Positions 48,628-64,000 of a stretch of DNA of 64,000 bases are shown here, one piece after another (position 1 is the first letter of the stretch; each line of letters begins with the position of its first letter). The notes beneath the pieces are model-generated. The model saw only the letters and a program-made list of their open reading frames with translations. It was not told the origin of the DNA and made no database searches. The translations under genes were made by a program, and so were the position numbers. The DNA comes from Negativicutes bacterium (GTDB lineage Bacteria; Bacillota; Negativicutes; UBA1444). Where the stretch lies: contig CAXXIN010000014.1 in assembly GCA_963665275.2 (NCBI GenBank), positions 1-64,000 of the forward strand, in the 5' to 3' direction.

Positions 48628-50031
48628 GTGAAAGAGTTTGACGTTATTATCATCGGCACCGGCCCCGCCGGCATCTTTGCTGCTTTGGAAATGGCGGACT
48701 CGGGCCTGAAGGTGCTTATGCTTGAAAAAGGCAGGGATATTTCAGCTCGGGCATGTCCAATTCACACAAAGGGGACAAAATGCGTCCATTGCAAGCCCTG
48801 TGGCATTCTGTGCGGTTGGGGTGGGGCGGGAGCCTACAGTGACGGAAAGTTGACTCTCACGACCGAATTCGGCGGCATGCTGGATCTTTATATGGACAAG
48901 CCCGCCCTGATGGATCTGATAGATTATGTGGACGGCATTTATCTCAAATTCGGCGCGACACAAACCGTATATGGCGACGATAACAAAGAAGCCGTTCGCA
49001 AAATTCAGAAGGATGCGGCATCGGCCGATCTTTCATTGATCCCTGCCCGCATACGTCATTTGGGAACTGATAAATGTCTGGAGATCCTCACGCTGATGCG
49101 AGACCATCTGGAGGATAAGTGCACAATCCGAACGAGTGACGGCGTTTCAAGGATCCTCGTAGAGAATGGATGTTACGTTGGCGTTGAGACTACCCGAGGT
49201 GAAAGTTTCTACAGCAAATATCTGATTGCGGCTCCTGGCCGTGAAGGTGCGGAATGGTTCACTGGTCAGGTCGGACAGATGGGGCTGGAGCTGATCACCA
49301 ACCCGGTCGATATTGGAGTAAGGGTAGAAGTGCCGGCGGTTGTGATGGAGCAGATCACCGACGTTGTGTATGAATCAAAACTGGTATATTATACGAAATC
49401 TTTCGACGACCGGGTGCGAACATTCTGCATGAACCCTTATGGTGTGGTGGTCGCGGAGAACAATGCAGGTCTCATTACCGTCAACGGACATAGTAACGCA
49501 GAAAAATCCTCCGAAAACACCAATTTTGCGATCTTGGTTTCCAAGAGTTTTACGGAGCCGTTTAAGGAACCAATCACTTATGGAAAATCCATTGCGAAGC
49601 TGGCCAACTTGCTTAGCGGCGGAGTCATCGTCCAACGCCTCGGCGACCTGAAGGCCGGACGCAGGTCCACGGAAGAACGCATTGGACGTGGCATGGTGAC
49701 GCCAACAATGAAAGAAGCGACGCCCGGCGACCTAAGCCTGGTGCTGCCGTACCGGCATCTGATCGCCATTATTGAGATGCTCGAAGCTCTTGACAAGGTT
49801 GCTCCGGGTGTCGGTTCGCGGCATACCCTGCTATATGGAGTTGAGGTTAAATTTTACTCTTCTCGACTGCACCTGAGCAATGTGTTGGAAACAAAGATAC
49901 TCAATTTTTTCGCAGTCGGCGATGGGGCCGGAGTGACAAGGGGGTTGGCGCAAGCCTCGGTTTCCGGCGTGATTGTTGCCCGGGAAATAAAAAAACGTGA
50001 ACACTGCAATGGCGGGCTGACCCATGATTGA
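48628..50031 (+). CDS. NAD(P)/FAD-dependent oxidoreductase
   Basis: IIGTGPAG, GWGGAGAYSDGK, RTFCMNP, GDGAGVTRG; promoter TTGACA-17-TAATAT at 48518-48546. Confidence 0.85.
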   Translation: MKEFDVIIIGTGPAGIFAALEMADSGLKVLMLEKGRDISARACPIHTKGTKCVHCKPCGILCGWGGAGAYSDGKLTLTTEFGGMLDLYMDKPALMDLIDYVDGIYLKFGATQTVYGDDNKEAVRKIQKDAASADLSLIPARIRHLGTDKCLEILTLMRDHLEDKCTIRTSDGVSRILVENGCYVGVETTRGESFYSKYLIAAPGREGAEWFTGQVGQMGLELITNPVDIGVRVEVPAVVMEQITDVVYESKLVYYTKSFDDRVRTFCMNPYGVVVAENNAGLITVNGHSNAEKSSENTNFAILVSKSFTEPFKEPITYGKSIAKLANLLSGGVIVQRLGDLKAGRRSTEERIGRGMVTPTMKEATPGDLSLVLPYRHLIAIIEMLEALDKVAPGVGSRHTLLYGVEVKFYSSRLHLSNVLETKILNFFAVGDGAGVTRGLAQASVSGVIVAREIKKREHCNGGLTHD

Positions 50032-50196
50032 CAGTCACCAAGATGCACAAGTGCAATTCGACGACCCGACGCGCTGACGTCAAAACCAATGCAAAAAAAG
50101 ATGCGGACATCGGCTTCTGCTTTGAAGCCGAATATCCGCTAAGGCATATTGATAAGATCATGGCCAGATTCGGCCTATAAGAAAGTAGGTGTAGCA

Positions 50197-51480
50197 ATGT
50201 CATCAGTTGTCGTAATGGGAACTCAGTGGGGTGACGAAGGCAAAGGGAAAATCGTCGACCATTTGGCGGAACAGGCGCAAGTCGTCGTTCGTTACCAGGG
50301 AGGAAATAACGCCGGACACACCGTCGTAGTCAAAGGAGTGGAATCCAAACTCAACCTGTTGCCCTCCGGTGTTCTGTATCCGGGAAAAACCTGCATCATC
50401 GGCAACGGAGTTGTCGTTGATCCGGCCCACCTTCTGAAAGAAATCAACGCGATGAAAGCCAGAGGCATCAACCTGGCTGGACTTCAGATTTCCAACCGGG
50501 CTCAAGTCATTTTGCCTTACCATCGAATGATGGATGAAGCAGACGAAGAGTCGCGGGGTGACGCAAAGATCGGTACTACGAAACGGGGCATCGGGCCTTG
50601 CTATGTTGATAAGAACAGCCGCGTCGGCATTCGCATCGTTGACTTGATGGATTCAGAAGAATTCGCACTGCGTCTGAAGCATAATTTGATTCTCAAGAAC
50701 CGAATTCTATCTGAAATCTACGGCAAACAGCCGCTGGACTATGAGTCGGTTTTAGCGGAATATCTGGGCTATGCTGATCAGCTTCGCCCCTATGTCGCTG
50801 ATACAATCTTCACGTTGCACGAAGCGCTGAAGCGTGGCGAAAAAATCCTTTACGAAGGCGCTCAGGCCACGATGCTCGACCTAGACTACGGAACTTATCC
50901 ATACGTTACCTCGTCACACCCAATCGCAGGTGGCGTATGCATCGGTGCGGGCGTAGGCCCCAGCACCCTTGACAAAGTGATTGGCGTTGTGAAGGCATAT
51001 ACTACGCGAGTAGGCGAAGGCCCGTTCGTTACGGAGCTGCATGAGGAAACCGGCAACCTGATCCGCGAACGCGGGCATGAGTATGGCACGACGACGGGTC
51101 GCCCTCGTCGTACCGGCTGGCTTGATACCGTGGTCGTTAAATATGCCTGTCAGCTTAGTTCGATCGATTGCCTGGCCATCACTCGTCTGGATATCTTAGA
51201 TACACTGCCCAAACTGAAAATTTGCACGGGTTATCTGTACAAAGGCAAGCCCTTGAATGAATACCCGGCCAGCCTCAAGGTGCTCGGTGAAGTGGAACCG
51301 GTCTATGAGGACCTTCCCGGCTGGCAGGCCGATATTACCGGTATTCGTCGCTATGAAGACCTGCCTCTTAATGCCCGTCGCTACGTCGAACGTCTGAGCG
51401 AACTTTCGGGGGCACGGCTGGGGATCGTGTCTGTTGGACCTGACCGCGAGCAGACTATCGTGCTCGAATCCATGTTTTAA
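50197..51480 (+). CDS. purA: Adenylosuccinate synthetase
   Basis: QWGDEGKGK, GGNNAGHT, YGTTTGRPRRTGWLD. Confidence 0.99.
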   Translation: MSSVVVMGTQWGDEGKGKIVDHLAEQAQVVVRYQGGNNAGHTVVVKGVESKLNLLPSGVLYPGKTCIIGNGVVVDPAHLLKEINAMKARGINLAGLQISNRAQVILPYHRMMDEADEESRGDAKIGTTKRGIGPCYVDKNSRVGIRIVDLMDSEEFALRLKHNLILKNRILSEIYGKQPLDYESVLAEYLGYADQLRPYVADTIFTLHEALKRGEKILYEGAQATMLDLDYGTYPYVTSSHPIAGGVCIGAGVGPSTLDKVIGVVKAYTTRVGEGPFVTELHEETGNLIRERGHEYGTTTGRPRRTGWLDTVVVKYACQLSSIDCLAITRLDILDTLPKLKICTGYLYKGKPLNEYPASLKVLGEVEPVYEDLPGWQADITGIRRYEDLPLNARRYVERLSELSGARLGIVSVGPDREQTIVLESMF

Positions 51481-51492
51481 TCAGGCATTGGC

Positions 51493-51521
51493 TTGACATC
51501 TACCCCGACTAGGGCTATAAT
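51493..51521 (+). promoter_or_regulatory. tRNA promoter
   Basis: Perfect TTGACA-17-TATAAT. Confidence 0.85.
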
Positions 51522-51538
51522 TCAAAATTGTGATATGA

Positions 51539-51614
51539 GACTCACTAGCTCAATTGGTAGAGCATCTGACTCTTAATCAGAGGGTTCCGGGTTCGAGTCC
51601 CGGGTGGGTCACCA
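51539..51614 (+). tRNA. tRNA-Lys (anticodon CTT)
   Basis: 76-nt cloverleaf: GACTCAC/GTGGGTC acceptor stem, TCTGA-CTCTTAA-TCAGA anticodon arm, GTTCGAG T loop, encoded CCA. Confidence 0.97.
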
Positions 51615-51624
51615 AAACAAAATC

Positions 51625-51658
51625 AATGGCTCCGGCGATTTTTGCCGGAGCCATTTTT
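51625..51658 (+). terminator. Terminator between the tRNA and the convergent integrase
   Basis: AATGGCTCCGGC...GCCGGAGCCATT followed by TTT. Confidence 0.85.
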
Positions 51659-51767
51659 ATGCCCATTTCTAAAAGTCTTCTAAAAATCGTAGTTGTGTTT
51701 TGCAAGAATGTTGTTTTTTCGGGGTGTTTGACGGGGTTGAGTTGTGAAGATGCTTTCATTATGGGGC

Positions 51768-53105
51768 TTAGGCGATGATGTGGTTTTCGTGCTCGGAGAT
51801 GATTTGTGATGTATGTTGATGAGTATCCTCAGGCGAATCTGATTGGGGCAGCTTGATTTTAGATCTTTTGGCGGCCAGCATTTTATTGCGATTTTTCTTT
51901 GCTTTACTGATTTTTGTGCGGAGAAATTTTGCGATCGGTGTCGGTTCAGCTACTACCGATTCGTCCGTTTTTTTCATGGGCGGCGTCAACAGGATCCGAT
52001 CCATCGCATTGGCGGCTTCCAATTGCATTTCCGGCAAGACATGGCTGTATAAATCTTGCGTGATCAAGGTCGAGGAATGCCCCAGCCGCTCGGAAATCGT
52101 CTTTACCGGGACATGCTCGAGCAGCAGCATCGTGGCGTGAGTGTGGCGAAGATCGTGAAAGCGGATGAGCGGCAGTTTCTCGCTGCGCAGAAGTTTCAGG
52201 AAGGCGTGGCTGAGAAACGCCGGATCATGTGGCGTTCCATTGTCATACGCCCAGACATAATCGAGCTTTTGATATAACGGGCCGGCCTCCAGCTTTTCGG
52301 CGGTCTGAATCGGTTTTAACGCGGTTAACAGGGTGATGAGCGCCTCAGGGAGTCGGATCGAACGCTCAGAGCGCTGGGTTTTTACGGGTTGGGATTTCAA
52401 TTGGCCGGCCACGCGGTTGAGTGAGTTGCGGACGAACATCAAGCCCCGATCCAGGGCGACATCTTGCCAGCGCAGCCCGCAGCATTCACCGCGGCGGAGA
52501 CCGCAGGTAGCCGCCAGCATAATCGGCAGGTGCAAGGGGGTGTTTTGGGCGGCCAGGATCAGACTGCTCAACAATTCGGGCGTGTAGGAGGAGGAACGGA
52601 ACTTTTCCGTTTTCGGCGCATCGACTGCCAAGATCGGGTTGTTCAGGATCAGGCACCATTTTACGGCGCGGTTCAAAGCGCCGCGTAACACCGCGTAGAC
52701 ATAATGGAGCATTGTTTTGGAGAGGGCGGGTTTTCGTTTGCGCAAGCGGCCAAGCAGATCTTGAAGATGGAGCGGACTGAGGGCTTTGAGTTCGATGCTG
52801 CCGATGTAGGGCGTGACGAAGGTCTCGACCGTCCATTTGTAGCTTTCATAGGTCGACTCGCGAACGGAAGGCTCCACATGATTGGCCAGCCAGCGAGTTA
52901 AAAACTCTTTGACTGTGATCTTCTCCGGATCCAGGAACTTGTCCCGTTCCTGTTCGACCAGCAAATGGGCCAAGGCTTCTTCGGCAAGGGCTTTGTCGGT
53001 GCCTGAACGAATCCAGCGGGTCTTCCATTTTCTCGTTTCGGGGTTTTGGCCAATACTCAAAACAAGATAATAAATATCCCCTTTCTTCTGAATGCTTCCC
53101 TTCAT
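51768..53105 (-). CDS. Tyrosine integrase (phage/ICEBs1-like)
   Basis: MKGSIQKKG arm domain; GLRRGE, K, HDLRHTHAT, RLGHS, DLYSH catalytic set; AGGAGG RBS. Confidence 0.95.
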   Translation of the reverse strand: MKGSIQKKGDIYYLVLSIGQNPETRKWKTRWIRSGTDKALAEEALAHLLVEQERDKFLDPEKITVKEFLTRWLANHVEPSVRESTYESYKWTVETFVTPYIGSIELKALSPLHLQDLLGRLRKRKPALSKTMLHYVYAVLRGALNRAVKWCLILNNPILAVDAPKTEKFRSSSYTPELLSSLILAAQNTPLHLPIMLAATCGLRRGECCGLRWQDVALDRGLMFVRNSLNRVAGQLKSQPVKTQRSERSIRLPEALITLLTALKPIQTAEKLEAGPLYQKLDYVWAYDNGTPHDPAFLSHAFLKLLRSEKLPLIRFHDLRHTHATMLLLEHVPVKTISERLGHSSTLITQDLYSHVLPEMQLEAANAMDRILLTPPMKKTDESVVAEPTPIAKFLRTKISKAKKNRNKMLAAKRSKIKLPQSDSPEDTHQHTSQIISEHENHIIA

Positions 53106-53136
53106 GTTGTGCCTCCTCTGCCGATATTTCATGACA

Positions 53137-53167
53137 AAAGGCCCGTCCGTCTTCACGGCGGGCCTTT
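53137..53167 (-). terminator. Terminator between repressor and integrase
   Basis: Minus strand AAAGGCCCGCCGT-GAAG-ACGGACGGGCCTTTT. Confidence 0.6.
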
Positions 53168-53251
53168 CGGCACAGAACATATTTTGCTAATAGAATCGGT
53201 TTGTTGGGCGCGCCCATGCAGTTGCAGGTTAAATAGCGCTCTAGAGCGGAT

Positions 53252-53938
53252 CTAATCTGTCCCCATGCCGCGCGGCAGGATATGGAATAGTCCCACGCAC
53301 GGTCCAACAATACAAACCCGTTGACGATCACCGGCGGTATAGACTTCCGGTGGTTGCGAGGAGTCTGCAGCCTGCAAGACGAGGGTGTCGGGTTGCACTT
53401 GGACGCAATACCTGAGGCAAAGACGATTGCCGTCGATAATTACCATGCAAAAATCGCCGGGTCGTACCTTGGCGTTGACGTGAGTCAAGACCAAGCACCC
53501 CTCCCCAATTCCTGCCATCGCCATAGATGAATCGGGAGCCGGGAGCAGGACGGCCTGGACGCCGCGGGAAACCGTAGCGACCTCGGCCGGGACGGGATAG
53601 GTGCCGTGAAAACTCAAAAAGGCTAACCTCCCTTCAATAACGGCCACAGATTTATAGATCGGCACGTAGACAACGTCTCCGATCCGAACTGAATCTGCCG
53701 TCGCTGAATACCCCAGGAGGTTATCAACTGTGGTATTGAAAATTTGTGCGATTCGCGGCAGCATCTGAGATTCCGGCGTTCGTTTGCCGATCTCCCATCC
53801 GGATACTGTCACTGGTGAAACGCCCAATTTTTCCGCTACCTGTTTCTGGGTCATCTTCTGTTTGTGCCGTAAATTTTGCAACGTGGTTTGCAGCGGAAAA
53901 ACATGGGCAGATTTCGAATGAGTCATGAAAATAACCAC
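53252..53938 (-). CDS. Xre HTH + S24-like repressor
   Basis: LRHKQKMTQKQVAEKLGVS..TVSGWEIGKRTP; C-terminal DSSM..AGI.EG LexA-like domain. Confidence 0.85.
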   Translation of the reverse strand: MVIFMTHSKSAHVFPLQTTLQNLRHKQKMTQKQVAEKLGVSPVTVSGWEIGKRTPESQMLPRIAQIFNTTVDNLLGYSATADSVRIGDVVYVPIYKSVAVIEGRLAFLSFHGTYPVPAEVATVSRGVQAVLLPAPDSSMAMAGIGEGCLVLTHVNAKVRPGDFCMVIIDGNRLCLRYCVQVQPDTLVLQAADSSQPPEVYTAGDRQRVCIVGPCVGLFHILPRGMGTD

Positions 53939-54017
53939 CCTTCGAAGATAGTATATGCCTCTCGTTTATAAAAATCAATACATATCCTCACACATATTCA
54001 CATGAAATTCAAAGGTA

Positions 54018-54087
54018 TTGACAGTTTTTAAACAACAGGAATAGAATAACAGCGAGCTAAAAAAATACTATCCTTAATGGATAGTAT
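54018..54087 (+). promoter_or_regulatory. Rightward promoter and candidate operator
   Basis: TTGACA-18-TAGAAT at 54018-54047; inverted repeat ATACTATCC-N5-GGATAGTAT at 54065-54087. Confidence 0.55.
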
Positions 54088-54118
54088 GGAATGATGGGGA
54101 AACAAGGGAGGAATTGAA

Positions 54119-54592
54119 ATGAAAGCGAAAGCAAGCACAAAAGCAGTGAAAGGGAGTGGCGGCGCGGCCCTCAGGTTGGCCAAACCCGGGGAAGCGCCGG
54201 AGCCCTGCCGTATCCCTTTGAAACCAGGAACAACAAAGCCTAGTGCGGCAGAAATGGCGTTTACGGAAGCCGCTGTCGCAAAATCAATGCTGCATACCGA
54301 ACAGATCGCGCCTGGCAACAAGCTGGCCTACAATGTCAGGGAAGCAGCGGAAGCGCTGGGGGTATCCCCCTGGTATGTGCGCGATGAGATGAATCTCGGG
54401 CGGTTGGGCTTTTCCTCCGCGCGTGGCCGCAAAATCATCCCACGCTGGGAACTGGTGCGATATCTGGAAGAATACATGCAGGGACACTCTGAAGCGGCAG
54501 GAGACGAAGAGAATACGCCACTCGTGCCAAACGACTCCGGGACCCCGTCTCTAAAGAAGGCGCTCGCAGGAAGTAAAAAAAGAATGATCTGA
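54119..54592 (+). CDS. Excisionase-like HTH protein
   Basis: LAYNVREAAEALGVS...V......G.L......GRKIIPR.EL..YL; divergent from the repressor. Confidence 0.75.
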   Translation: MKAKASTKAVKGSGGAALRLAKPGEAPEPCRIPLKPGTTKPSAAEMAFTEAAVAKSMLHTEQIAPGNKLAYNVREAAEALGVSPWYVRDEMNLGRLGFSSARGRKIIPRWELVRYLEEYMQGHSEAAGDEENTPLVPNDSGTPSLKKALAGSKKRMI

Positions 54593-54660
54593 CAGGTCAG
54601 CGGGTATGAAACAAGCTGGATCGGTCGGATTTTTTTATGGGCAACTGCGCTGGCGGCGCT

Positions 54661-54780
54661 TGTGGATAAGCCTGTGGATAACGCTGCGTGAAGTACAAAG
54701 ATTGCCGATCAGATGGACGCAGAGTGCCAGAGAGAGTGACAATGAGCGGCTATCAGAGTGACACACATTGTCACTCTCTC
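54661..54780. repeat. Two perfect DnaA boxes plus AGAGTGACA direct and inverted repeats
   Basis: TGTGGATAA at 54661 and 54673; GAGAGAGTGACAATG (54730) inverted with CATTGTCACTCTCTC (54766); a third AGAGTGACA at ~54755. Confidence 0.8.
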
Positions 54781-54952
54781 ATAGCCCGGGCCCAGTCAGC
54801 TGTAGGATGAGCGGCTCCCTAACATACAGAGAATACCTTACAGAAGAAATTACAACGGAACCTAAAGGGGACCAGCTCCAATAAGGATCAGAAAAAGGTC
54901 TGATAGAGACCCTCAGATAAAATCAAACCGATGAAAATGATGGAGAAGGAGT

Positions 54953-55624
54953 ATGGAAAATATTGCAGCGATTGTTCAAAGTCTGCTGCCGGCGAAGGGC
55001 GCCGACGGATCCTGGCAAAGAGCGAATCTGCCAGTAGCGGAACCGTCCAACAGAGCACAGCTACATCCGGATAAAGTCCCGTTCATTACTTTTCCGGTAT
55101 CTATCGGCTTGTTGGAAGGAAAGCACGTCGAGGCCATGGGAATCGCCGTCTGGTGCTTTTTATGGTGCATCAATAGGGTAACCTCGGATCGCACCGATCC
55201 GGACGGAGAGCGTTGGGGTCAGGTTCTCGGCGGCTGCCGGTTCAACCATCAACGGATTGCCGATGAACTCGGGATCAGCCTGCGGGCGGTCCGTTACCAG
55301 ATGGATCGTCTGAGATCAGGAGGTTACCTGCGCATTACCCGTTGCCAGGACGGGCAGCAGGTGGAAGTCCGGCACAGCATCAAATGGCTGCGCAGAAAAA
55401 CTCAGGGCGCGCCAAACAGCCGGCCTGAACTGCCACCACCCGTCACAAAACTACCGGACATAGATCCTCCTGTCAGCGTCCCGGAAGTGCTGGTGAACCC
55501 GGTGGTTTCGGTGGCAGAGGAGTCTATCTCGCCAGAGCCCGATGCTGAAACCGCCAAGGTGTTTTCTCTGGCGGAAGCCTTGCGCAGGAAACAATGGGAG
55601 CGGGAGCAAGGCTTGCGGGAATAA
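54953..55624 (+). CDS. Winged-HTH protein, replication-initiator-like
   Basis: HQRIADELGISLRAVRYQMDRLRSGGYLRI followed by a Pro-rich linker; GGAG RBS. Confidence 0.6.
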   Translation: MENIAAIVQSLLPAKGADGSWQRANLPVAEPSNRAQLHPDKVPFITFPVSIGLLEGKHVEAMGIAVWCFLWCINRVTSDRTDPDGERWGQVLGGCRFNHQRIADELGISLRAVRYQMDRLRSGGYLRITRCQDGQQVEVRHSIKWLRRKTQGAPNSRPELPPPVTKLPDIDPPVSVPEVLVNPVVSVAEESISPEPDAETAKVFSLAEALRRKQWEREQGLRE

Positions 55625-55628
55625 AACT

Positions 55629-55662
55629 CCCCTCCCGCCGAAAAAGCGGGAGGGGCTGGGGG
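55629..55662. repeat. GC-rich REP-like hairpin
   Basis: CCCCTCCCGC-CGAAAAA-GCGGGAGGGG followed by CTGGGGG; no U tract. Confidence 0.6.
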
Positions 55663-55736
55663 TAGGTCCGAGACCCTAGCCGACCGAGGCGATTCCGACA
55701 GGGAAAACTTCCAGTGAGCTGCCGCCACCTGCCGAC

Positions 55737-55843
55737 ACGTCGGATAATAGCCCCACGTTATGTCAACCCGAAGGGCGCGCAGCGAAAGCGAGCGGTAGAC
55801 GCGTAGCGGACTACTTTTGACATAACGTTCTATTATCGGATGG
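55737..55843. other. Inverted pair of dif-like (Xer-type) sites forming a long imperfect hairpin
   Basis: ACGTCGGATAA-10 nt-TTATGTCAACC on plus and CCATCCGATAA-7 nt-TTATGTCAAAA on minus, about 50 nt apart. Confidence 0.6.
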
Positions 55844-56066
55844 GCCGGCATGACTGGGCTGAATGATGGCACCCGTTCCCCCGTCCTCCGGCAGCTACCG
55901 TGGCCGATGGATCGGGCGCGGTGGCTGCTACCCAGGCAGCAACAGACGCTAGGCAGTAACGAGGCGTGATCCGGACCGGGGCAGTATGCGCCGGGGAGGA
56001 TGACGCCGACGGGATAGGGCAGGAATCTGCGGGAGGCGATGCGGTTCCCGGCGGTCTGATGCCAAG

Positions 56067-56101
56067 GCGGCCCGACGAACGGCAAACGGAAGCCCGCCAC
56101 G
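56067..56101. repeat. 35-bp direct repeat, copy 1
   Basis: GCGGCCCGACGAACGGCAAACGGAAGCCCGCCACG, identical to 57943-57977. Confidence 0.95.
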
Positions 56102-56157
56102 TCGGTGGCGGGCTGGAGGCCGGGCTAGGGACGCAAAGCGAGATGGGGACGTTTAAA

Positions 56158-57819
56158 TTATTTGGCTCCATATTGCTTCAGATATTCTATCGTTTTCTTA
56201 AACTCAGGAATATTATATTTTTTGTCACATTCCAGCGCATAGTCGAGAGCACTACGGCGACCCTGGTCAAGGACATGCGGATTAGCGCCCATTTCCAGCA
56301 TTCGTAGGATGATTTCGGGTGGGCCGCCCCAGGCCGCGTACATCAGAGGAGTTTTCCCATATTGATCTTGCACATTAATCGCTGCGCCTCTATCCAGCAG
56401 CAAGTTCATTTTTAACCTTCTGCCACCACCGTGCTTTGCGGCCAAAATTAGGGGAGTTCCGCCCTGATTATCCCGCGCGTTAATATCTGCGCCTGCGTCA
56501 AGCAATATCAGCATTTTCGTGTTGTTATCCATAGTCGTTGATACCATCCACATCAAAGGGGTTCTTCCTTCATCATCCCGCGCATTGACTGCAGCACCCA
56601 TTTCAACAAGTAATTTTGCGATATCCGGCTTATAGGCAGCGCTAGCCTGCATTAATACCGTCGTTCCTTTGTTGTTTTTCGCATGAATATCAGCACCGTG
56701 ATCAATCAACATTTTTGACAAATCGGAAGTCCCGTTTTTCGCGGTAGCATGCAGCAACGGCGTGGATCCTGTTTCGTCCCTGGCGTTGATATCTGCGCCT
56801 GCCTCCATCAGATATTGAATTTTGTTCATGCTTTCTATTTGGCTGGGCCTATGACTACTTTGATACCAACGTACTGCTTCAATAAATGCATTGTTTTTGT
56901 CCGCCGGCGAAAAACGAATCCCTTTGGACAACAAATCTTTGACTGTTTCCAAACTCCCCCGCCCGGCCGCGTAGATCAGAGCCGTTTTCCCGCTGGCATC
57001 TTCAGCCTGGATATCGGCGCCTTGGGCAAGCAATAAATCCACGGCATCCACTTTTCCCGTTTCGGCAGCACTCATAAGTGCGATTTGACCTTGGCTGGTT
57101 TTTGAATTGACATTTGCACCGTTTTCCAACAACAGTTTCATAGCTTCGAGATTTCCTCTGTTACTGGCTACCATCAGCAGCGTATTTTCTGGAAGGGAGA
57201 TGGTTTCCACGCCAGCGAAAGGCTTCTGTCTATATATCTTTACCGTCTTTCCACCACCATCAAGGTTTTTCGCATTCACATCCGCGCCTTTGGCGATCAA
57301 GAGTCTGGCCAGATCCAGGTTGCCTTGCTCCAGCGCAATTCCGAGGGGGGCTTCCCACTGGTTGTTTCTTTCGTTGATGCCGATTCCGCCATAGATCAAG
57401 GGCTTGGCCAGGAATGGATATTCTTTGACGGCCAGTGCCGTTGGCGTTCGGACTCCTTGGGCACCCAGCAAGCAACTGAGGATAGCGCAAGCAAGAGTGA
57501 ATCCTACGAAAATTTTCGCTCGACGTTTGGCTTTCGCATCTTCGGTTAAGGACCGGTAACGGGAGAGCATGTGGCCGCTGACAGGGCAGAGGACTATAAC
57601 AATAAAAACTAAACATAACACGAACCACTCTTCCAAATTCCAAGGCTCATGTTGAGCGATAAAAGCCCAGACAAAATAAGCGATAGGTAAAAGCACAAAG
57701 AATCGAACAACGGTATACCCATCGAAAATCCGTAGATTTTTCAGCGTAGCAATCATAAAGACCAACCAGCAAACAAATACAACACTGAGAAGAGGTGCGA
57801 TCTTCACTAGCAGCAGCAT
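56158..57819 (-). CDS. Membrane-anchored ankyrin-repeat protein
   Basis: About 4 N-terminal TM segments, then about 10 G.TPLM.AA...LL..GADINA repeats; AAGGAG RBS. Confidence 0.92.
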   Translation of the reverse strand: MLLLVKIAPLLSVVFVCWLVFMIATLKNLRIFDGYTVVRFFVLLPIAYFVWAFIAQHEPWNLEEWFVLCLVFIVIVLCPVSGHMLSRYRSLTEDAKAKRRAKIFVGFTLACAILSCLLGAQGVRTPTALAVKEYPFLAKPLIYGGIGINERNNQWEAPLGIALEQGNLDLARLLIAKGADVNAKNLDGGGKTVKIYRQKPFAGVETISLPENTLLMVASNRGNLEAMKLLLENGANVNSKTSQGQIALMSAAETGKVDAVDLLLAQGADIQAEDASGKTALIYAAGRGSLETVKDLLSKGIRFSPADKNNAFIEAVRWYQSSHRPSQIESMNKIQYLMEAGADINARDETGSTPLLHATAKNGTSDLSKMLIDHGADIHAKNNKGTTVLMQASAAYKPDIAKLLVEMGAAVNARDDEGRTPLMWMVSTTMDNNTKMLILLDAGADINARDNQGGTPLILAAKHGGGRRLKMNLLLDRGAAINVQDQYGKTPLMYAAWGGPPEIILRMLEMGANPHVLDQGRRSALDYALECDKKYNIPEFKKTIEYLKQYGAK

Positions 57820-57942
57820 AGCAGCTCCTTTCCAATTGTTGCTATTTTCCGCAGGGTATTTCTGGGTTCCTGCGGACAAAAAGCTTAATTATATAGGACG
57901 ATTGTCCTGTTGTGGACATTGAGTTATTAGTGCGAGGTCAGA

Positions 57943-57977
57943 GCGGCCCGACGAACGGCAAACGGAAGCCCGCCACG
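57943..57977. repeat. 35-bp direct repeat, copy 2
   Basis: Identical to 56067-56101. Confidence 0.95.
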
Positions 57978-58022
57978 GATGTGACGGGCATTACGGATCG
58001 ACGCCGGCAGCATACAGCTCGC

Positions 58023-58217
58023 TCATTGGCGGGCGATACGCAGGCGAACCTGTTGGTCGATTTCGCGGCGGGCTTCCGATAGCGAAAGATGGCCGGACTC
58101 CACGCGGGCGAATATGTGGCGGCTCCATTCCGGAACTGCGGCATTCTCCAGTCGCAAATCGGCGCGGGCCTGGCGCATGGCTTCCGCCACCGGCAGGGTT
58201 GTAATGATCTTTTTCAT
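58023..58217 (-). CDS. VbhA-like antitoxin-family small protein
   Basis: AMRQARADLRLEN....EW......RVESGHLSLSEA resembles the VbhA pattern. Confidence 0.55.
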   Translation of the reverse strand: MKKIITTLPVAEAMRQARADLRLENAAVPEWSRHIFARVESGHLSLSEARREIDQQVRLRIARQ

Positions 58218-58248
58218 CGGCAACACGCCCTTTCTGGCAATAATGTGA

Positions 58249-58292
58249 TATCAAAGTAGTATCAAAGTAGTATCAAAATAGTATCAAAGTGC
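58249..58292. repeat. Four tandem 11-bp repeats
   Basis: TATCAAAGTAG TATCAAAGTAG TATCAAAATAG TATCAAAGTGC. Confidence 0.95.
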
Positions 58293-58370
58293 TACTACTT
58301 TTATAGTATATCATGCCGCAGAGCTGCCATGGAGGAGGGCAGTCAGACGGCGAAAAAAGGAGGCTTTCCC

Positions 58371-59219
58371 ATGCAAAAAAATCAATCACTCGAACGCGTA
58401 TTCCACTTTCAAAACAAGCCGGTGCGAACGCTGGACTTCTTTGGCTCGCTCTGGTTCGTGGCGAAAGATGTCTGCGAAGTTCTCCGAATTCGAACGAATT
58501 CCATCCGGTGCGTCCTGGATGAAGATGAGGTGCGAGCGTTCAATCCCAATGACAATAGTATTGACATTGGGCAAGAGGAAGTCGGGCATGGCGGACGCAA
58601 CATGCTGGTGGTAAGCGAACCCGGACTCTATTCTCTCGTATTGAAATCGCGCAGGCCTGAAGCGCGGCAGTTCAGGCGCTGGATTACCCACGAAGTTATT
58701 CCGGTGCTGCGGGCGGCCGGCAGCTACCAAATGCCAGCTCCTGCCGGGTCGGGTCAACTGTTGCAGTTTTCCCGGCGGGATCTGCTCAATCTGGCGGTGG
58801 AGGCGGAAACCGAATGCGAGGAGCTGCGCGGTGTCGTGGTCGACATGTTGCCCAAGGTTGAATTTTACGACCGGGTGGCGGACACGAGCGCGTCGTTTTC
58901 GCTCGGAGAAACGGCCAAGATGATGGAGATCCCCGGTTTCGGACGCAACAACTTGATCCGGTTCCTGCGGGATGGGGCCGGAGTCCTGATGGCCGACAAC
59001 GTGGCCAAGCAGAAATATATCAACCGAGGCTATTTTCATATCGTACAGAGGGACTACTGCGCGCCGGACGGTACGCCGCGCGTGAAAGCGGTGACGCGGG
59101 TCTATGAAAAAGGCGTCGATTATATCCGACACCTTCTGGATGACGGTGAATACTTGGTTGCTGCAAGCGGTAGCGCAGACAGCAGCCATAGTAGATCCGC
59201 ATCCGAAGGATGGAGGTAA
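58371..59219 (+). CDS. Bro-N / KilA-C (ANT) phage antirepressor
   Basis: WFVAKDVCEVL, VSEPGLYSLVLKSRRPEARQFRRWITHEVIP, PKVEFYD, GRNNL..FLR. Confidence 0.92.
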   Translation: MQKNQSLERVFHFQNKPVRTLDFFGSLWFVAKDVCEVLRIRTNSIRCVLDEDEVRAFNPNDNSIDIGQEEVGHGGRNMLVVSEPGLYSLVLKSRRPEARQFRRWITHEVIPVLRAAGSYQMPAPAGSGQLLQFSRRDLLNLAVEAETECEELRGVVVDMLPKVEFYDRVADTSASFSLGETAKMMEIPGFGRNNLIRFLRDGAGVLMADNVAKQKYINRGYFHIVQRDYCAPDGTPRVKAVTRVYEKGVDYIRHLLDDGEYLVAASGSADSSHSRSASEGWR

Positions 59220-59268
59220 GTGGTGGCAAGCGCCAGCGCAGACAGTGGTCATAGTAGATCCGCATCCG
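59163..59268 (+). repeat. Imperfect 43-bp duplication, 63-bp period
   Basis: GCAAGCG..AGCGCAGACAG..G.CATAGTAGATCCGCATCCG at 59163 and 59226. Confidence 0.85.
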
Positions 59269-59527
59269 GAATGAAGTGAAGGACGAATGAGATCTGGACC
59301 GCGCGAACGCGGGCCGGTAGGGTGGAAACGTAAAACAGCCGCCGCAGGAGAATGCGGCGACTGTTTTGAAGAAGAGGATGATACTCAGGGGCAAGCAAAG
59401 CGACCAGACAGCGCTCGCCAGTATCTACGGGTGCATATCCGTTGATACTTCATTATCTTACACCTGATGCAAGAGGAAGGACAACTTGGATTTTCCTTGG
59501 TATCGGGCAAAAAGGGAGGCATATTTT

Positions 59528-60136
59528 ATGAAAATCTGTATTGATCCGGGGCATAGCGGACCGGTAGAGCCGGGAGCTTGCGCTGGCGGCGCGACAGAGG
59601 CGGCGATTAATCTGCAGGTGGCAAAGATTCTGGGCAAGATGCTCGAGAATGCCGGGCACAAAGTAGTGTTGACGCGGGTTGATGACATCGAGGACATTAC
59701 CTTGACGTGGCGCTGCGAGGTGGCGTGGAAGTTCCGGGCGGATCTTTTTATCTGTATCCACTGCAATGCTCATGAAGATAAGGAGGCGCACGGAACGGAG
59801 ACCTGGTATTACGAGACCAGCGAGCGGGGGCACAATCTGGCGCGCTGCATCCAAGCGGCTATCGTCGCCAACTGCGGCACGACCGATCGGGGTGTGAAGT
59901 CTAAAGATGACTGGACCGTGCTGCAGGGTACCACCTGTCCGGCGGTATTGGTGGAGTTGGCATTCATCACGAATGACGAGGAGCGCGCCCGGTTGACCGA
60001 TCCATTTCTGCAGCGGCAGTTCGCGGTGGGAATCAGCAACGGGATCGAACAGTTCGCCAAGGGCGGCTCGCTGTTCGGCGGCGTGGCGGAGAGGCGACAA
60101 AGCTACGATATACGGGCCTTCGCGCGGAGGCGTTGA
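59528..60136 (+). CDS. N-acetylmuramoyl-L-alanine amidase (Amidase_3, no signal peptide)
   Basis: IDPGH, E...NL, CIHCNA, AVLVELAFITN. Confidence 0.93.
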   Translation: MKICIDPGHSGPVEPGACAGGATEAAINLQVAKILGKMLENAGHKVVLTRVDDIEDITLTWRCEVAWKFRADLFICIHCNAHEDKEAHGTETWYYETSERGHNLARCIQAAIVANCGTTDRGVKSKDDWTVLQGTTCPAVLVELAFITNDEERARLTDPFLQRQFAVGISNGIEQFAKGGSLFGGVAERRQSYDIRAFARRR

Positions 60137-60167
60137 CAGTTTTTCGGCGGTGGATCTATACTTAGTT

Positions 60168-60302
60168 CAGACAAACGAATAGCGCACAGGGGATGGAGCG
60201 CACGCACATGGGTATCCCCGCAGGACTTGCAATCCTTGCGGCTACCATACAGTACCTCCATCCCCATTTATCGGGACACGTCGCCATGGCGTGTCCCTTT
60301 CT
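60168..60302 (+). ncRNA. Candidate structured small RNA
   Basis: Promoter TTGACA-18-TATACT (60133-60162), long hairpin 60189-60265, terminator-like hairpin 60273-60302. Confidence 0.45.
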
Positions 60303-60543
60303 CATGCCCGGCGGCCCATCAAGGCCCATCTACTACGTTACGGCTGTGTTTTTCCTGCTTGCGTACGATCTGTACGCCGCGCAGTAAAAGCCTCGCCGTG
60401 CCTTGTAGCTGAACCTTGCTGAACCGTCGGGCGGAAAAAAGAAGCGGGATGCAGGCACAACCGGAAAACCGGGGCCTCGCGTCCCGTTTTTCATAAATAC
60501 GCAGGGAACGCGCGAAAGCGCTGCCCCGAAAGGAGGGATCCTC

Positions 60544-60768
60544 ATGGCTGTTACTAAAGCGCCCCAGGAATCCCGCATCGGCATCAAAGTCATCAACGGC
60601 GTCAACGCCACCGGGGGCAACGTGTTCAAGACGCTGGGCTTTTCCAATGTGAAGCCCGCCGCGCTGGACCAGGACGTCTACGATGTCGCCGCCAGCCTCG
60701 CAGGACTGCAGGCGAAATCGCTGGTCTCGATCGTGCGAACCGACACCGCCAACCTGATCGGCGAGTAA
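60544..60768 (+). CDS. DUF1659 family protein
   Basis: MAV....S...I....G....G..V.KT..FSNVK..A.DQDVY.VA..LA.LQ pattern; GGAGG RBS. Confidence 0.8.
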   Translation: MAVTKAPQESRIGIKVINGVNATGGNVFKTLGFSNVKPAALDQDVYDVAASLAGLQAKSLVSIVRTDTANLIGE

Positions 60769-60802
60769 CGCCGGCACTAAATTTTAAGGAAAGGAGGGGC
60801 AA

Positions 60803-61018
60803 ATGATGACTCGAACACTCAAACTCGGATTCAAAAATGCGGACGGCAAGGATGTGAACATCCTTGTCGCCGACCCGAAAGACGGCATTACCAAAGTGGA
60901 AGCCGTCGCCGCCCAGACGCTGATCATCGCCCGGAACCTGTTCGCATCGACCGGCGGCGATCTCATCTCGGCGCTCGATCCCGTTGTGTTGACTCAGGAC
61001 ACCACGCTGCTGGCCTAG
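60803..61018 (+). CDS. DUF2922 family protein
   Basis: TL.L.F.NADGK...I.V.DPK..IT..E.......II..N.F...GGDL pattern. Confidence 0.8.
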   Translation: MMTRTLKLGFKNADGKDVNILVADPKDGITKVEAVAAQTLIIARNLFASTGGDLISALDPVVLTQDTTLLA

Positions 61019-61022
61019 TCTC

Positions 61023-61217
61023 ATGGACTGGGCGCAGCTCATCTCCCAAGTGGGATTCCCGATTGCAGTTTCTGCATGGCTTTTGATCCGCCTAGATGAT
61101 CGACTCGGCGCGTTCGAAAAGACCGCCGTGGCGATCTGCCAGCGGCTCGAGGACCAAAGCAACCGCTGCAGTGAATGCAAAGAGTGGAGGCAGCGAAACG
61201 AAAAAATGAAGGCATAA
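61023..61217 (+). CDS. YvrJ family small membrane protein
   Basis: LISQVGFPIAVSAWLLIRLD..L followed by a coiled coil. Confidence 0.8.
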   Translation: MDWAQLISQVGFPIAVSAWLLIRLDDRLGAFEKTAVAICQRLEDQSNRCSECKEWRQRNEKMKA

Positions 61218-61257
61218 GCGCTGACCACGCCATCTTTGCTGAAACAAGCTAAAAATG

Positions 61258-61300
61258 AGGGACACGCTGCCGAAGGAAAGGCAGCTGTCCCGCATTTTTT
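61258..61300 (+). terminator. Terminator after the YvrJ-family gene
   Basis: GGGACA-C-GCTGCC...GGCAGC-TGTCCC followed by GCATTTTTT. Confidence 0.65.
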
Positions 61301-61340
61301 GTCATAAAACAACAATGAAAATAATTGAGGGAAAGAGGTT

Positions 61341-61772
61341 TTGAATATGTTGTTAACAGATGTGACCAAGATTTTGAAAGTACTGCTCGGAGCGTTCGGG
61401 GCTGTGGCCTCCCGCGATGATCTTACCCAGCGCCGGATCGGCCAGATCGGCGAAGTGATCGGCGCGGTGGATGATGTGGCGGCGTATGAGGAAGACAAGG
61501 ACGGTGGGGGTGGGACGATGGCCCAGAGGCGCGTCGAGGAAGCGCATGATATTATCCACCGGGTGGCAGCGATATTGGCGATGGAGGATGAGGGGGAGAA
61601 CGGTGGCGGAGACAATTCTGGCGATGCGGGGCAGGACAATACAGGATTGGAAGCAACTGCCGAGCAGGACGTCATCTCCAGGAAGAATGGTGACGAGCCG
61701 CTGGCTGAAGTTCCTTGGGACGGGACGATCGACGGGGAGACCATTGAGCTGAAGGAAGACGAAGAAGAATAA
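61341..61772 (+). CDS. Hypothetical protein with an acidic C-terminus
   Basis: 143-aa ORF with GAGG RBS; helical N-terminus, D/E-rich tail. Confidence 0.6.
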   Translation: MNMLLTDVTKILKVLLGAFGAVASRDDLTQRRIGQIGEVIGAVDDVAAYEEDKDGGGGTMAQRRVEEAHDIIHRVAAILAMEDEGENGGGDNSGDAGQDNTGLEATAEQDVISRKNGDEPLAEVPWDGTIDGETIELKEDEEE

Positions 61773-61929
61773 CCAAGAAGAAAATCATTGGCTAAATGAA
61801 AATGACTGGCTGGAACAACTTCAGCTGGTCGTTTCGTTTCAGAACACCTGAGCAATGTATTCAAAGATGGCCGATTAGCGTCAGGCGGCAGAGTGATCCG
61901 GAAATTCCGGATAACTGCGTCTGACGTCA

Positions 61930-62008
61930 ACGAGCCGCTGGCCGAGTTCCTGAGGACGGGACACTCGCGGGGGAGACCATCGAGCTAAAGGAAGCTGAAG
62001 AAGAATAG
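61930..62008 (+). repeat. Degenerate copy of the last ~80 bp (61693-61772) of the preceding gene
   Basis: ACGAGCCGCTGGC...GGGGAGACCAT.GAGCT.AAGGAAG..GAAGAAGAATA is shared. Confidence 0.85.
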
Positions 62009-62282
62009 CATAACTGTGCGGGCTACAAATAAGTAGCCTGCTTTTTTTGTCTAAGTAGTATTTGATGGCAGGATTACGAAAGGTTTTCGGGAATCGATTG
62101 AACGAGTACCCGAAATTGCAAGTTGAGTATTTTTCCCACATTGGCTGATGAGAGTGACAGACGATTCCGCTTATTCTACTAATGGGTACAAAAAGTAATA
62201 AAGAATTTTATTTTTAGTATTGTAAATACTAAAAATAAAATGTATGATGTCATCAGATGGTCGATCATGGAGGAAATGGAAA

Positions 62283-63893
62283 ATGAATGCGAAAGCATTA
62301 GAATCTTTTGTCCAATTGTTATACATACGAAACATGGTGGATCGGGAGCAGATCTTGTTGGAAGCTGTTCGAGTCGTTCGGACTTTTCAACAGCTGCACA
62401 ACCGACAAGAAACCATTTCCGACACACCGGAAGATAAAGAACTCTTGTTTGCTGAAATGCAAAGTGTTTCGGAGTCTTCCGAATTGGGACACTTTCCCGG
62501 TGATCGGGAATTTTTCTACAACCTCTTTGCGGTTGCATGTGAACTCGACCTGATAGAGTTGCTGGTCAAGTCCGGCCGAAACGACCGCACAGGAATGCTG
62601 GCGCCCGCGTATCTGGTCGAATATTTGGCCGGTGGGATTACAAAAGACACCGCCCGGGTTTTCGTGGCAGAAGCTGAAAAATTTGCCGAAGGTCTGCAAA
62701 AATTAATAGCAGAGAATCCCAAAGTGGAATTTACATTAACGACGGAAAAGAAAATACATTATCTCCTCCTGGTAACGGCTTTTTCACAAAACCATAATGT
62801 CCGGATACTGAATCAATCGATTTATCGTGAACTGTTACATAAAGACAGCTATGATTTATTGCTCACCATTCCATCGTTTGGCAATCGTTATAACTCGGAG
62901 GAATCCAACAATAATTTTATCACTCGAGACTCGGAATGCATCGCCGTGGAAAACCTCCTCCGCCATCTTGGCGAGCGCGGAAAACTGGCCGCAGTGTTGC
63001 CTGCCAAAGTAACCTTCGCCAGCGGTCCGGTTCAGGAGTTTAGACAATGGATCATGGCCGACTATCACCTGGAAGCCATATACTCTCTGCCAGAAGGAAT
63101 CTTCCGGCCCTATGCTGGCATCAAGACGTATTTAATGGTTTTTGACGCAAAAACGACGATAGGGGTTACAGTCGGCAAAATAATCGATGAGGACTATAGA
63201 CTGCTAGTCAAACAAAAGCAATGGATTTCCGACGTAGAATTCAACGGGCACGAAGATTGGCGGACAGAAATATATCTCGCCGATGATAACGAAGCCATCC
63301 AGAAGTTTAAAACCTCCGGTCTCGAAAAAATCAAACTCAAGGATGTGGCAGAAATCTTCCGGGGCAAGTCCGTGCTCAAAGATGATCTGCAGCCAGGAAA
63401 AATAAGAGTCCTGAATATATCCAACATGGACGAAGGCGAACTCATCTTCGACGAAATGGACACCATCCACGAAGAAATTCGCAAGGTGAAACGGTATCAA
63501 CTGGAATCTGGCGATATCGTGCTAACCTGTCGGGGGACATCAAACAAAGTCGCCGTCTTCCCGGAAACAGAGCATGTGGTCATTGCCTCGGCAAACATCA
63601 TCGTGCTGCGTATCAAAGAAAAGATCGCGCCTCAATATCTGAAAATATTCCTGGATAGTCCGATCGGACAAATGATGATCAAGAGTTTTCAACGGGGAAC
63701 CACGATGATGAACATCAACCCCAACGACATCGGCGAAATGGAGATTCCGCTGCTGCCCATGGAAAGACAACAAAGTCTCGTTCGGCAGTTTCTGGCAGAA
63801 CAGGAACGATATCGGCGGGAAAAAGCGGAAATTGAACAGCGATGGGAAAAAGAACGCTCGGAACTATACAATAATTTTGTAAGGGGATGCTAA
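62283..63893 (+). CDS. Type I R-M-associated protein: degenerate N6-MTase domain fused to one HsdS-like TRD
   Basis: L...GKLAAVLP...F......[18 protein letters not shown]; C-terminal [35 protein letters not shown]. Confidence 0.75.
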
Positions 63894-63894
63894 G

Positions 63895-64000
63895 ATGGCG
63901 GAGAATGCGAATGGTGCAACACTTGGCTTTGAAGAAAAACTGTGGCAGGCTGCGGACAAAATGCGCAACAATATGGATGCGGCCGAATACAAACATGTTG
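63895..64000 (+). CDS. hsdM: Type I R-M methyltransferase subunit (5' part, truncated by the window)
   Basis: [35 protein letters not shown] matches the HsdM N-terminal pattern. Confidence 0.88.

Follow-up and report, generated by a model that had tools for sequence, protein, structure and literature searches.

Two groups of described elements come closest to the locus reported here. In the portion of PMC10085698 that sets out criteria for phage-inducible chromosomal islands (PICIs), holin and tail genes are forbidden components and lysis genes are atypical. The StCI satellites of Streptococcus thermophilus, as summarized in the abstract of PMC13376191, are induced by phages, confer phage resistance and can move by natural competence without packaging by a helper; they are present in most strains, full prophages being rare. 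Here we describe an integrative island from a Negativicutes bacterium (assembly of 3.97 Mb in 20 contigs) that begins at the 3′ end of a tRNA-Lys gene near the end of the analysed window, the first 64 kb of a 210-kb contig (C14). The island joins a phage-type regulation and replication arm to a Bro/ANT antirepressor-like gene, an amidase, a DUF1659-DUF2922-YvrJ trio and a large block of defence genes. We consider it probable, though well short of certain, that this integrative island derives from a phage, can excise and replicate by itself, carries exchangeable defence cargo and is transferred by outside means. No description of the element family was found in the literature searched, subscription journals being outside its coverage.

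The left border of the island is defined by the following features (contig and window coordinates coincide):

51539-51614, plus strand: tRNA-Lys(CTT), the sole tRNA found by ARAGORN, 70.9 bits in Rfam
51570-51614: attL core, the last 45 bp of the tRNA-Lys gene
51625-51655: terminator-like hairpin at the left end of the element
51666-51689: 24-bp arm-type repeat, 52 bp inside attL, with its second copy at C14:83219-83242, 92 bp inside attR

An exact 45-bp copy of the tRNA-Lys 3′ end (attR) lies at C14:83335-83379, 19 kb beyond the window end, and is followed by the native tRNA terminator; within the window no second att copy was found, either with up to 3 mismatches allowed or in a repeat search. 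In G001, a genome of the same genus, the site is empty (attB; contig C25, locus L086), with the tRNA joined directly to the right-flank terminator, and C14 83335-83421 is 94% identical to L086 across this empty site. The distant 45-bp repeat and the empty site thus identify the island as a discrete 31.8-kb insertion, consisting of a 10.4-kb backbone and about 21 kb of defence cargo, two thirds of the total. The initial annotation had foreseen a duplicate of the tRNA end downstream, which exists, and had drawn a compact element of about 10 kb at 51615..62010, which has to be redrawn: 62010 is the junction between backbone and cargo. The two 24-bp repeats would, from their placement, be integrase arm sites flanking the core in attP. 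Host genes to the right of attR encode MscS, HU and an RND efflux system, and a right-flank synteny search found no tRNA adjoining the MscS orthologues in six loci of relatives; it was the search with the left flank that led to the empty site.

Other genomes of the genus also have this tRNA-Lys site occupied (L078, L080, L082, L084); in G008 and G006 the first ~70-100 bp past the tRNA are 81-82% like the left end of the island, in G010 an integrase gene follows 1.7 kb after it, and several assemblies break exactly at this gene. A scan of 50000-64000 against Rfam by E-value matched the tRNA alone. Logan contigs of runs X1 and X2 show 0 differences to the window, natural variant contigs about 96% identical to it occur in one wastewater metagenome run, and raw-read run X23 gave one placed read, with no RNA run among those listed; loose contig ends at tRNA-Lys derive from other tRNA-Lys contigs.

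Genes were called by profile searches against Pfam and PHROGs, which recovered every gene that the initial annotation had named. The backbone reads as follows, from attL rightwards:

51768-53180, minus strand: tyrosine integrase (PF00589, 2.3e-21; PF14659; phrog_1, 6e-72)
53252-53938, minus strand: CI/LexA-like repressor (HTH_3 and Peptidase_S24)
54119-54592, plus strand: HTH_17 Xis/AlpA-like protein (PF12728, 5.5e-6; phrog_66 excisionase/regulator, 3.5e-6)
54661-54780: origin-like region between Xis and Rep, with two DnaA boxes and an inverted repeat
54953-55624, plus strand: DnaD-like/winged helix-turn-helix (wHTH) replication initiator or helicase loader (Rep), 223 aa (phrog_7498, 1.4e-20; weak HTH_24)
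58329-59219, plus strand: Bro-N and ANT/KilAC antirepressor-like protein (PF02498, 6.5e-19; PF03374, 4.6e-19; phrog_130, 1e-51)
59486-60136, plus strand: Amidase_3, a single-domain N-acetylmuramoyl-L-alanine amidase (PF01520, 2.3e-49; phrog_435 endolysin, 3e-51)
60544-60768, plus strand: DUF1659 protein (PF07872, 1.4e-21)
60803-61018, plus strand: DUF2922 protein (PF11148, 3.2e-15)
61023-61217, plus strand: YvrJ-family small membrane protein (PF12841, 2.6e-9)
61341-61772, plus strand: acidic 143-aa protein, which closes the backbone and serves as family marker

As first annotated, no terminase, portal, capsid, tail, relaxase or type IV secretion system family was matched in the window, and across the whole island to attR Pfam, PHROGs and PADLOC gave no virion, packaging or conjugation family; just past the window there are defence genes and then attR, in place of head/tail or conjugation modules. 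Neither are the homologous loci always fragments of full prophages: virion, packaging or relaxase matches were found in 0 of 18 loci scanned with Pfam (the island and 17 related loci; the relatives contributed 101, 20 and 68 open reading frames (ORFs) in three scan sets, in addition to the island and loci on contigs C7 and C13 of its own genome). The host genome (92.6% complete) has no match to PF05065, PF03354, PF03237 or PF04860, and G007, a 100% complete genome of the same genus with three family loci, has none to HK97 capsid, TerL_ATPase or Terminase_6N. The HK97 capsid and TerL genes of G010 lie on contigs other than the four that carry its family loci, and the true prophages of that genome have no Bro, DUF1659, DUF2922, YvrJ or acidic gene, sharing with the island the amidase alone (39-41% identical). 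DUF1659 had no tblastn match in 50,697 phage records, neither the DUF1659 protein nor the acidic-protein alignment found a relative in IMG/VR, and the Rep protein gave only two weak matches in viral collections, at 29% identity.

Evolutionarily, the island belongs to a family with a conserved backbone, as the synteny survey that the initial annotation had proposed bears out across metagenome-assembled genomes (MAGs) of Negativicutes. In each of the eight same-genus loci that carry the acidic gene, the genes stand as [Rep]-[SMC-like ATPase]-Bro/ANT-amidase-DUF1659-DUF2922-YvrJ-acidic, as far as the contig reaches, and variable cargo follows; in these relatives it includes type I restriction-modification (R-M), Fic, Schlafen/AlbA_2, KAP nucleoside triphosphatase, phospholipase D-type (PLD) helicases, PIN, a C5 methylase and a group II intron. 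In a search with the acidic-protein alignment (A1, 68-82% identity) as family marker, 19 loci were recovered from a collection of species-representative genomes, eight of them the known same-genus loci; 18 of the 19 lie in MAGs labelled Negativicutes, Sporomusaceae or Veillonellaceae, and one in a contig of a MAG labelled Anaerolineales. G055, from another family of the class, has integrase-Xis-ERF-Rep, a block with a 1912-aa helicase and then amidase-DUF1659-DUF2922-YvrJ. The island's own genome carries two more amidase-DUF1659-DUF2922-YvrJ copies, one on C7 with an HTH_3 regulator, a single-stranded DNA-binding protein and a homologue of the acidic protein, and one on C13 with a Lin1244_N replisome organiser and a G39P-like loader. 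Group II introns (RVT_1 and GIIM maturase) occupy the same point of YvrJ in both (C7:248445-250223 and C13:227080-228858; L013, L014), within 3.9-kb blocks that are 98.5% identical, and a different group II intron stands between amidase and DUF1659 in L023.

The backbone genes are under purifying selection: by the Nei-Gojobori method, comparing the island with nine homologous loci, dN/dS was 0.04-0.59 in all 51 pairs with unsaturated dS, three further pairs being saturated. By gene the ranges were:

YvrJ: dN/dS 0.04-0.14
acidic protein: dN/dS 0.06-0.24
amidase: dN/dS 0.10-0.31
Bro/ANT: dN/dS 0.19-0.42
DUF2922: dN/dS 0.23-0.43
DUF1659: dN/dS 0.19-0.59

Downstream of the acidic gene, defence cargo is exchanged between diverged backbones: in L039 the acidic gene is 58% identical to that of the island, yet HsdSM, HsdM and HsdR are 84-94% identical, and the Schlafen gene of L047 is 82% identical. 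Because no virion gene was matched by Pfam in any of the 18 loci, because G007 and G010 show the same separation from tailed-phage genes, and because the backbone is under purifying selection, we regard the proposal of a distinct element class, as opposed to a decayed prophage, as supported in so far as it describes a conserved virion-less family; its second half, that the element is a satellite or an unconventional virus, gains nothing from our searches, which turned up neither a packaging signal nor a helper nor a particle protein.

Decay is nevertheless the first alternative to weigh, namely that a prophage lost its morphogenesis block by deletion and that the immobile remnant later gathered defence genes near attR. 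The left arm has a make-up usual for temperate phages, the amidase matches an endolysin profile, integrase-less and truncated copies of the family exist, and one cargo gene has an in-frame stop; moreover, as is generally known, Firmicute prophages often carry extra genes between lysin and attR. We nonetheless judge this origin unlikely. The virion-less architecture recurs in 18 loci at 41-91% protein identity with dN/dS below 1 for every backbone gene, a pattern that independent decay would not produce; the island is bounded by perfect att repeats, and its target site is found empty in a relative; none of the DUF1659, DUF2922, YvrJ, acidic and Bro genes occurs in the true prophages of the genus; and the acidic marker was not found in IMG/VR, nor DUF1659 in the 50,697 phage records.

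The integrase likely starts at the methionine of MKGSIQKK, giving a protein of about 445 aa, and homologues of the HTH_17 protein are 58-61% identical in L038 and L042. The repressor retains the DSSM serine motif, and at the position where the catalytic lysine of the S24 motif is expected, both the island protein and its 62% identical homologue in L038 read arginine by eye; if this reading holds, induction through the antirepressor is more likely than RecA-driven self-cleavage. Between Xis and Rep, the origin-like repeats of the initial annotation resolve into two perfect DnaA boxes (54661-54669 and 54673-54681, 12 bp apart) and a perfect 15-bp inverted repeat (54730-54744/54766-54780); the window holds five perfect DnaA boxes against 0.42 expected. 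The three others fall within 1.6 kb of one another (9725-9733, 9780-9788 and 11290-11298) and may mark a chromosomal origin or dnaA region. Homologues of Rep, 44-50% identical, were found in 3 of 60 relatives searched.

The candidate control signals of the backbone are as follows:

54018-54047, plus strand: early promoter-like site TTGACA-18-TAGAAT, 11/12, ahead of the Xis-Rep operon
within 54018-54087, between the repressor and Xis genes: candidate operator, the perfect palindrome ATACTATCC-N5-GGATAGTAT
58242-58296: four 11-bp tandem repeats with a TAGTATC core, just upstream of Bro/ANT
60133-60162, plus strand: second promoter-like site TTGACA-18-TATACT, 11/12, just after the amidase gene
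within 60133-60543, plus strand: 380-nt leader that contains a terminator-like hairpin (60470-60486)

The sites at 54018 and 60133 are the two best sigma-70-like sites of the region and have TTGACAGTTTTT in common. Promoter-like sites (9 against 8.3 in shuffles) and terminator-like sites (15 against 12.6) are not in excess over the region, and only the two 11/12 promoter-like sites were used in the interpretation. The repeats upstream of Bro/ANT and the palindrome have the motif ATAGTAT in common, and both would be operators, to judge from their form and placement. The hairpin at 60470-60486, standing between the promoter-like site at 60133 and DUF1659, suggests a regulated leader. A 64-aa transmembrane ORF in this stretch (60193-60387) was considered as a holin, but whether it codes at all is doubtful, since it is frameshifted in the C13 copy and has 1-nt indels in related contigs.

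The amidase likely starts at 59528 (MKICIDPGH). YvrJ is 81-91% identical across the family and matched phrog_4898 only weakly (E 0.0046), there being no convincing holin in the island. The predicted structure of the DUF1659 protein (pLDDT 80) has a beta-beta-alpha-beta arrangement; Foldseek searches of PDB and BFVD gave nothing at E <= 0.001, the best TM scores being 0.3-0.5. The acidic protein has no match in Pfam, PHROG, PADLOC or PDB, and its predicted model is poor (pLDDT 52), too low for a structure search; no sequence match in PDB was found for DUF1659, DUF2922 or the acidic protein.

Cargo is carried at two places, one gene within the backbone and the main block to the right of the acidic gene, and is accompanied by non-coding repeats:

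56158-57879, minus strand: ankyrin-repeat, membrane-anchored cargo protein, 573 aa (Ank_2, 4.5e-95; PADLOC PDC-M72A, 2.9e-60)
61930-62007, plus strand: degenerate second copy of the acidic-gene 3′ end, 84% identical to 61693-61771
62018-62041, plus strand: terminator after the duplicated acidic 3′ end
62244-63893, plus strand: HsdS/methyltransferase (MTase)-like gene, start of the cargo
63895, plus strand: start of HsdM, the cargo running on to C14:83301
55699-56022 (core 55715-55845), minus strand: structured non-coding repeat "L", about 350 nt, with a second copy at C14:77445-77793 (plus strand)
56067-56113, 57943-57989 and C14:74757-74816 (reverse): GC hairpin repeat "S", 47-60 nt

The segment 61930-62041 is a scar of the backbone/cargo junction, and L037 has a similar partial duplicate of the acidic 3′ end. 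Annotation of the 62-83 kb cargo with Pfam, PHROGs and PADLOC gave a type I R-M system (HsdS/MTase-like gene, HsdM, HsdS, an FRG/PDC-S15 gene and HsdR), a type I cyclic-oligonucleotide-based anti-phage signalling system (CBASS; SMODS cyclase, PADLOC 3e-99, and S_4TM effector, 3e-57), a Schlafen/AlbA_2-HATPase_c_4 protein, a second ankyrin protein and a DUF6979 protein. Several known defence systems by PADLOC (type I MTase, S and REase, PDC-S15, CBASS and a PtuA/GajA-like ATPase) thus stand side by side, as in a defence island. The gene at 62244-63893, ahead of HsdM, has part of an N6_Mtase domain and one Methylase_S target-recognition domain and is 84% identical in L039, beside the same R-M system.

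The initial annotation had named a folded Xer-like site; this is repeat "L" together with the hairpins "S", both of which recur in the cargo, and no link to Xer was found. Repeat "L" is GC-rich, with other copies at L051 17495-17844 and 2028-2383, L042 15236-15492, and in L095-L097, L100, L102 and L103; a 130-position covariance model, run on 151 related genomes, recovered 11 copies, and the five genomes that have them belong to a single family of the class. Over the 11 sequences, in an alignment fitted to the covariance model itself, 91% of cells are paired against 29-44% when the structure is slid, and 13 of 37 pairs show compensatory changes, a level that 0 of 500 shuffles reach. In three loci the repeat follows a Schlafen/AlbA_2 gene on its 3′ side, as it does the ankyrin gene in the window, and it may be an RNA partner of a cargo gene. 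As a protein-coding gene it was rejected (its two ORFs lie in different frames, 27 gaps occur in 333 nt, and mismatches spread 18/21/22 over codon positions), and as a group II intron fragment likewise, being unlike the intact introns on C7 and C13 and without an Rfam match. Copies of hairpin "S" stand on either side of the ankyrin gene and ahead of the Schlafen-like gene, so that the order hairpin, gene, hairpin, long repeat is seen twice in the island; these hairpins may be cassette borders or terminators.

Mechanistically, we posit that the CI-like repressor would hold down the promoters at 54018 and 60133 and the Bro/ANT gene through operators of the ATAGTAT type, and that the antirepressor is a more likely trigger of their release than RecA-driven self-cleavage. 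On derepression, the integrase and the HTH_17 protein would excise the island at att, the excised form would replicate from the DnaA-box origin with the DnaD-like initiator, and the amidase/DUF1659/DUF2922/YvrJ/acidic operon would be switched on simultaneously. Transfer would then take place by outside means, either in the capsids of an infecting helper phage or by release on lysis followed by DNA uptake, while the cargo (type I R-M with PDC-S15, type I CBASS, Schlafen/AlbA_2 and ankyrin proteins) would protect the host and so pay for carriage.

Several points weigh against this scheme. Excision, replication and transfer are steps that we infer from gene content, and the Logan contigs, which break at repeats, are unable to show excision. 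Searches of the island gave no packaging signal, no small terminase and no gene for capsid remodelling, which makes helper dependence only a guess, and the host genome is without a resident tailed prophage by the four Pfam families searched. The Pfam scans were limited to ORFs of >=80-90 aa picked greedily, leaving many ORFs unnamed. A PtuA/GajA-like ABC ATPase-methyltransferase fusion in the cargo (C14:78924-80828; L001 16924-18828) is split by an in-frame stop at C14:79563-79565 into two same-frame ORFs, and may be a pseudogene, a sequencing error or two genes. The copies on C7 and C13 are short and lie among host genes, their YvrJ being split by the same group II intron, and the G007 loci on C24, C1 and C16 have no tyrosine integrase on their contigs (those of G010 on C27 and C33 have one beside the repressor or Rep); with integrase-less members and these short copies, part of the family looks fixed in place. 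Finally, of the 301 genomes of the class, 261 have DUF1659, mostly as a single copy, and in 6 of 9 chromosomal DUF1659 loci from other families a sigma factor lies just upstream; with a trio so nearly universal in chromosomes, its presence in the island may reflect host physiology and not transfer.

These last observations favour a second alternative, in which the amidase/DUF1659/DUF2922/YvrJ/acidic set is an envelope or stress operon of the SigO/SigS type that rides on a plain genomic island without contributing to its spread, the island moving only by chance, by generalised transduction or transformation and its integrase. In the other families the order is sigma factor-DUF1659-DUF2922-YvrJ, with YvrJ following DUF2922 in 4 of the 9 loci. 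The sigma factor, where present, is a protein of about 190 aa (Sigma70_r2/r4, weak HTH_16; L028, L030-L033 and L036), and the chromosomal unit matches the SigS-SroAB and SigO-yvrJ links in Bacilli, the latter being that of B. subtilis. Within the genus, the single-copy loci of G005 and G008 have the order DUF1659-DUF2922-YvrJ-amidase, and integrase-less copies retain the module intact. From the portions of the two sources that bear on these families, the Staphylococcus aureus DUF1659 and DUF2922 proteins SroA and SroB are induced by SigS and act on sigS mRNA stability (bioRxiv 10.1101/2022.10.19.512975), and DUF1659 clusters phyletically with sporulation domains (PMC2955703). The trio is also a widespread sigma-linked chromosomal operon and hence not a proven lysis set, which leaves the "lysis-like" label that had been given to DUF1659, DUF2922 and YvrJ unconfirmed. 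As an account of the island, however, the passenger operon is rather improbable: in the genus the module always accompanies a phage-type Rep and Bro/ANT, with 3-5 diverged copies per genome, its own promoter resembles the early promoter of the element, and tblastn found no sigma factor of the trio-linked type in the island's own genome.

The remaining alternatives concern the route of transfer and a possible particle. It is doubtful, though conceivable, that the island needs no helper at all, being a self-releasing defence island that excises, replicates and opens the diderm envelope with its own operon, by lysis or vesicles, the amplified circle then being taken up by neighbouring cells and integrated at tRNA-Lys. 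If true, self-release would be a mode of transfer intermediate between those of phages and transformation, and one with a conserved module dedicated to release. Very improbable, in our view, is an integrative mobilisable element (IME) moved by a conjugative helper via an unrecognised oriT: an integrase, Xis and replication module without transfer genes would suit one, and many such hitchers are known (from part of PMC11389934), but no relaxase, coupling-protein or type IV secretion family is present in the island by Pfam, in scans that cannot recognise oriT, and its regulatory genes (CI, Bro/ANT) are of phage type. That DUF1659, DUF2922, YvrJ and the acidic protein are structural proteins of a novel particle is scarcely credible: they are small proteins of an abundant type, form the best-conserved part of the backbone and matched no known fold, but in most genomes of the class these three families are found on the chromosome, usually once and linked to a sigma factor, and there is no morphogenesis ATPase, no packaging enzyme and no match in viral collections.

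Whichever route applies, the family adds a conserved, virion-less and phage-derived lineage from Negativicutes, where satellites and hitchers have hardly been described, and through its fixed cargo slot entire defence systems pass from one diverged backbone to another. The family also sets the unexplained trio, sigma-linked in other Firmicutes, in a new mobile context beside a cell-wall amidase, which gives a handle on the function of these proteins. If spread of the phage-derived island needs no helper capsid, the known routes by which defence islands move would widen.

Set against known systems, the island resembles PICIs, including the staphylococcal pathogenicity islands (SaPIs), as far as the portion of PMC10085698 used here describes them, in its end-placed site-specific integrase (PF00589/PF14659, phrog_1), in a repressor divergent from an AlpA/Xis-type gene, and in having its own replication module, no structural genes, accessory defence genes and several diverged copies per genome. 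Of the regulators that the same source names for PICIs (an alpA, merR or stl homologue), the island has the HTH_17 protein with the divergent CI-like repressor, by Pfam and PHROGs. Unlike PICIs in that description, it has no primase-replicase, only the 223-aa DnaD-like/wHTH protein, with no primase or helicase family; no small terminase or capsid-morphogenesis gene is matched in 51.6-83.4 kb, where small unmatched ORFs remain; and it measures 31.8 kb against roughly 10-15 kb, in a host of the class Negativicutes. Its endolysin-type amidase (phrog_435, 3e-51) may be a further difference. The left half of the island works like a PICI, yet the island is not a member of that group.

With temperate siphovirus-type prophages of Firmicutes, including those of G010, the island has in common an integrase-CI-Xis-Rep-antirepressor left arm, an Amidase_3 endolysin and tRNA integration; unlike them, it has no terminase, portal, capsid, tail or recognisable holin, and its Bro/ANT gene is followed by an amidase and a small-protein operon. 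The chromosomal sigma-DUF1659-DUF2922-YvrJ operons have the same three families in the same order, whereas in the island an amidase replaces the sigma factor, the acidic protein is appended, and the module sits on a mobile backbone and is multiplied per genome. P2/P4-like elements and tycheposons hold a variable defence block at a fixed place by a conserved gene and att. The island likewise has a variable defence block with cargo exchanged between related backbones, although, compared by description, its backbone genes, host and integrase lineage differ from those of these hotspots. By the features tested, it is not a tailed prophage, an integrative and conjugative element or an IME. Like the StCI satellites, the island has attL and attR, an integrase, regulation and replication genes and no structural genes. 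It is larger than they are (31.8 kb, with a backbone of 10.4 kb, against 7-20 kb), and the StCI abstract mentions no amidase/DUF1659/DUF2922/YvrJ module (PMC13376191). The likeness is one of description, the two not being known to be related in sequence; on that footing, StCI would be the nearest working analogue of the island.

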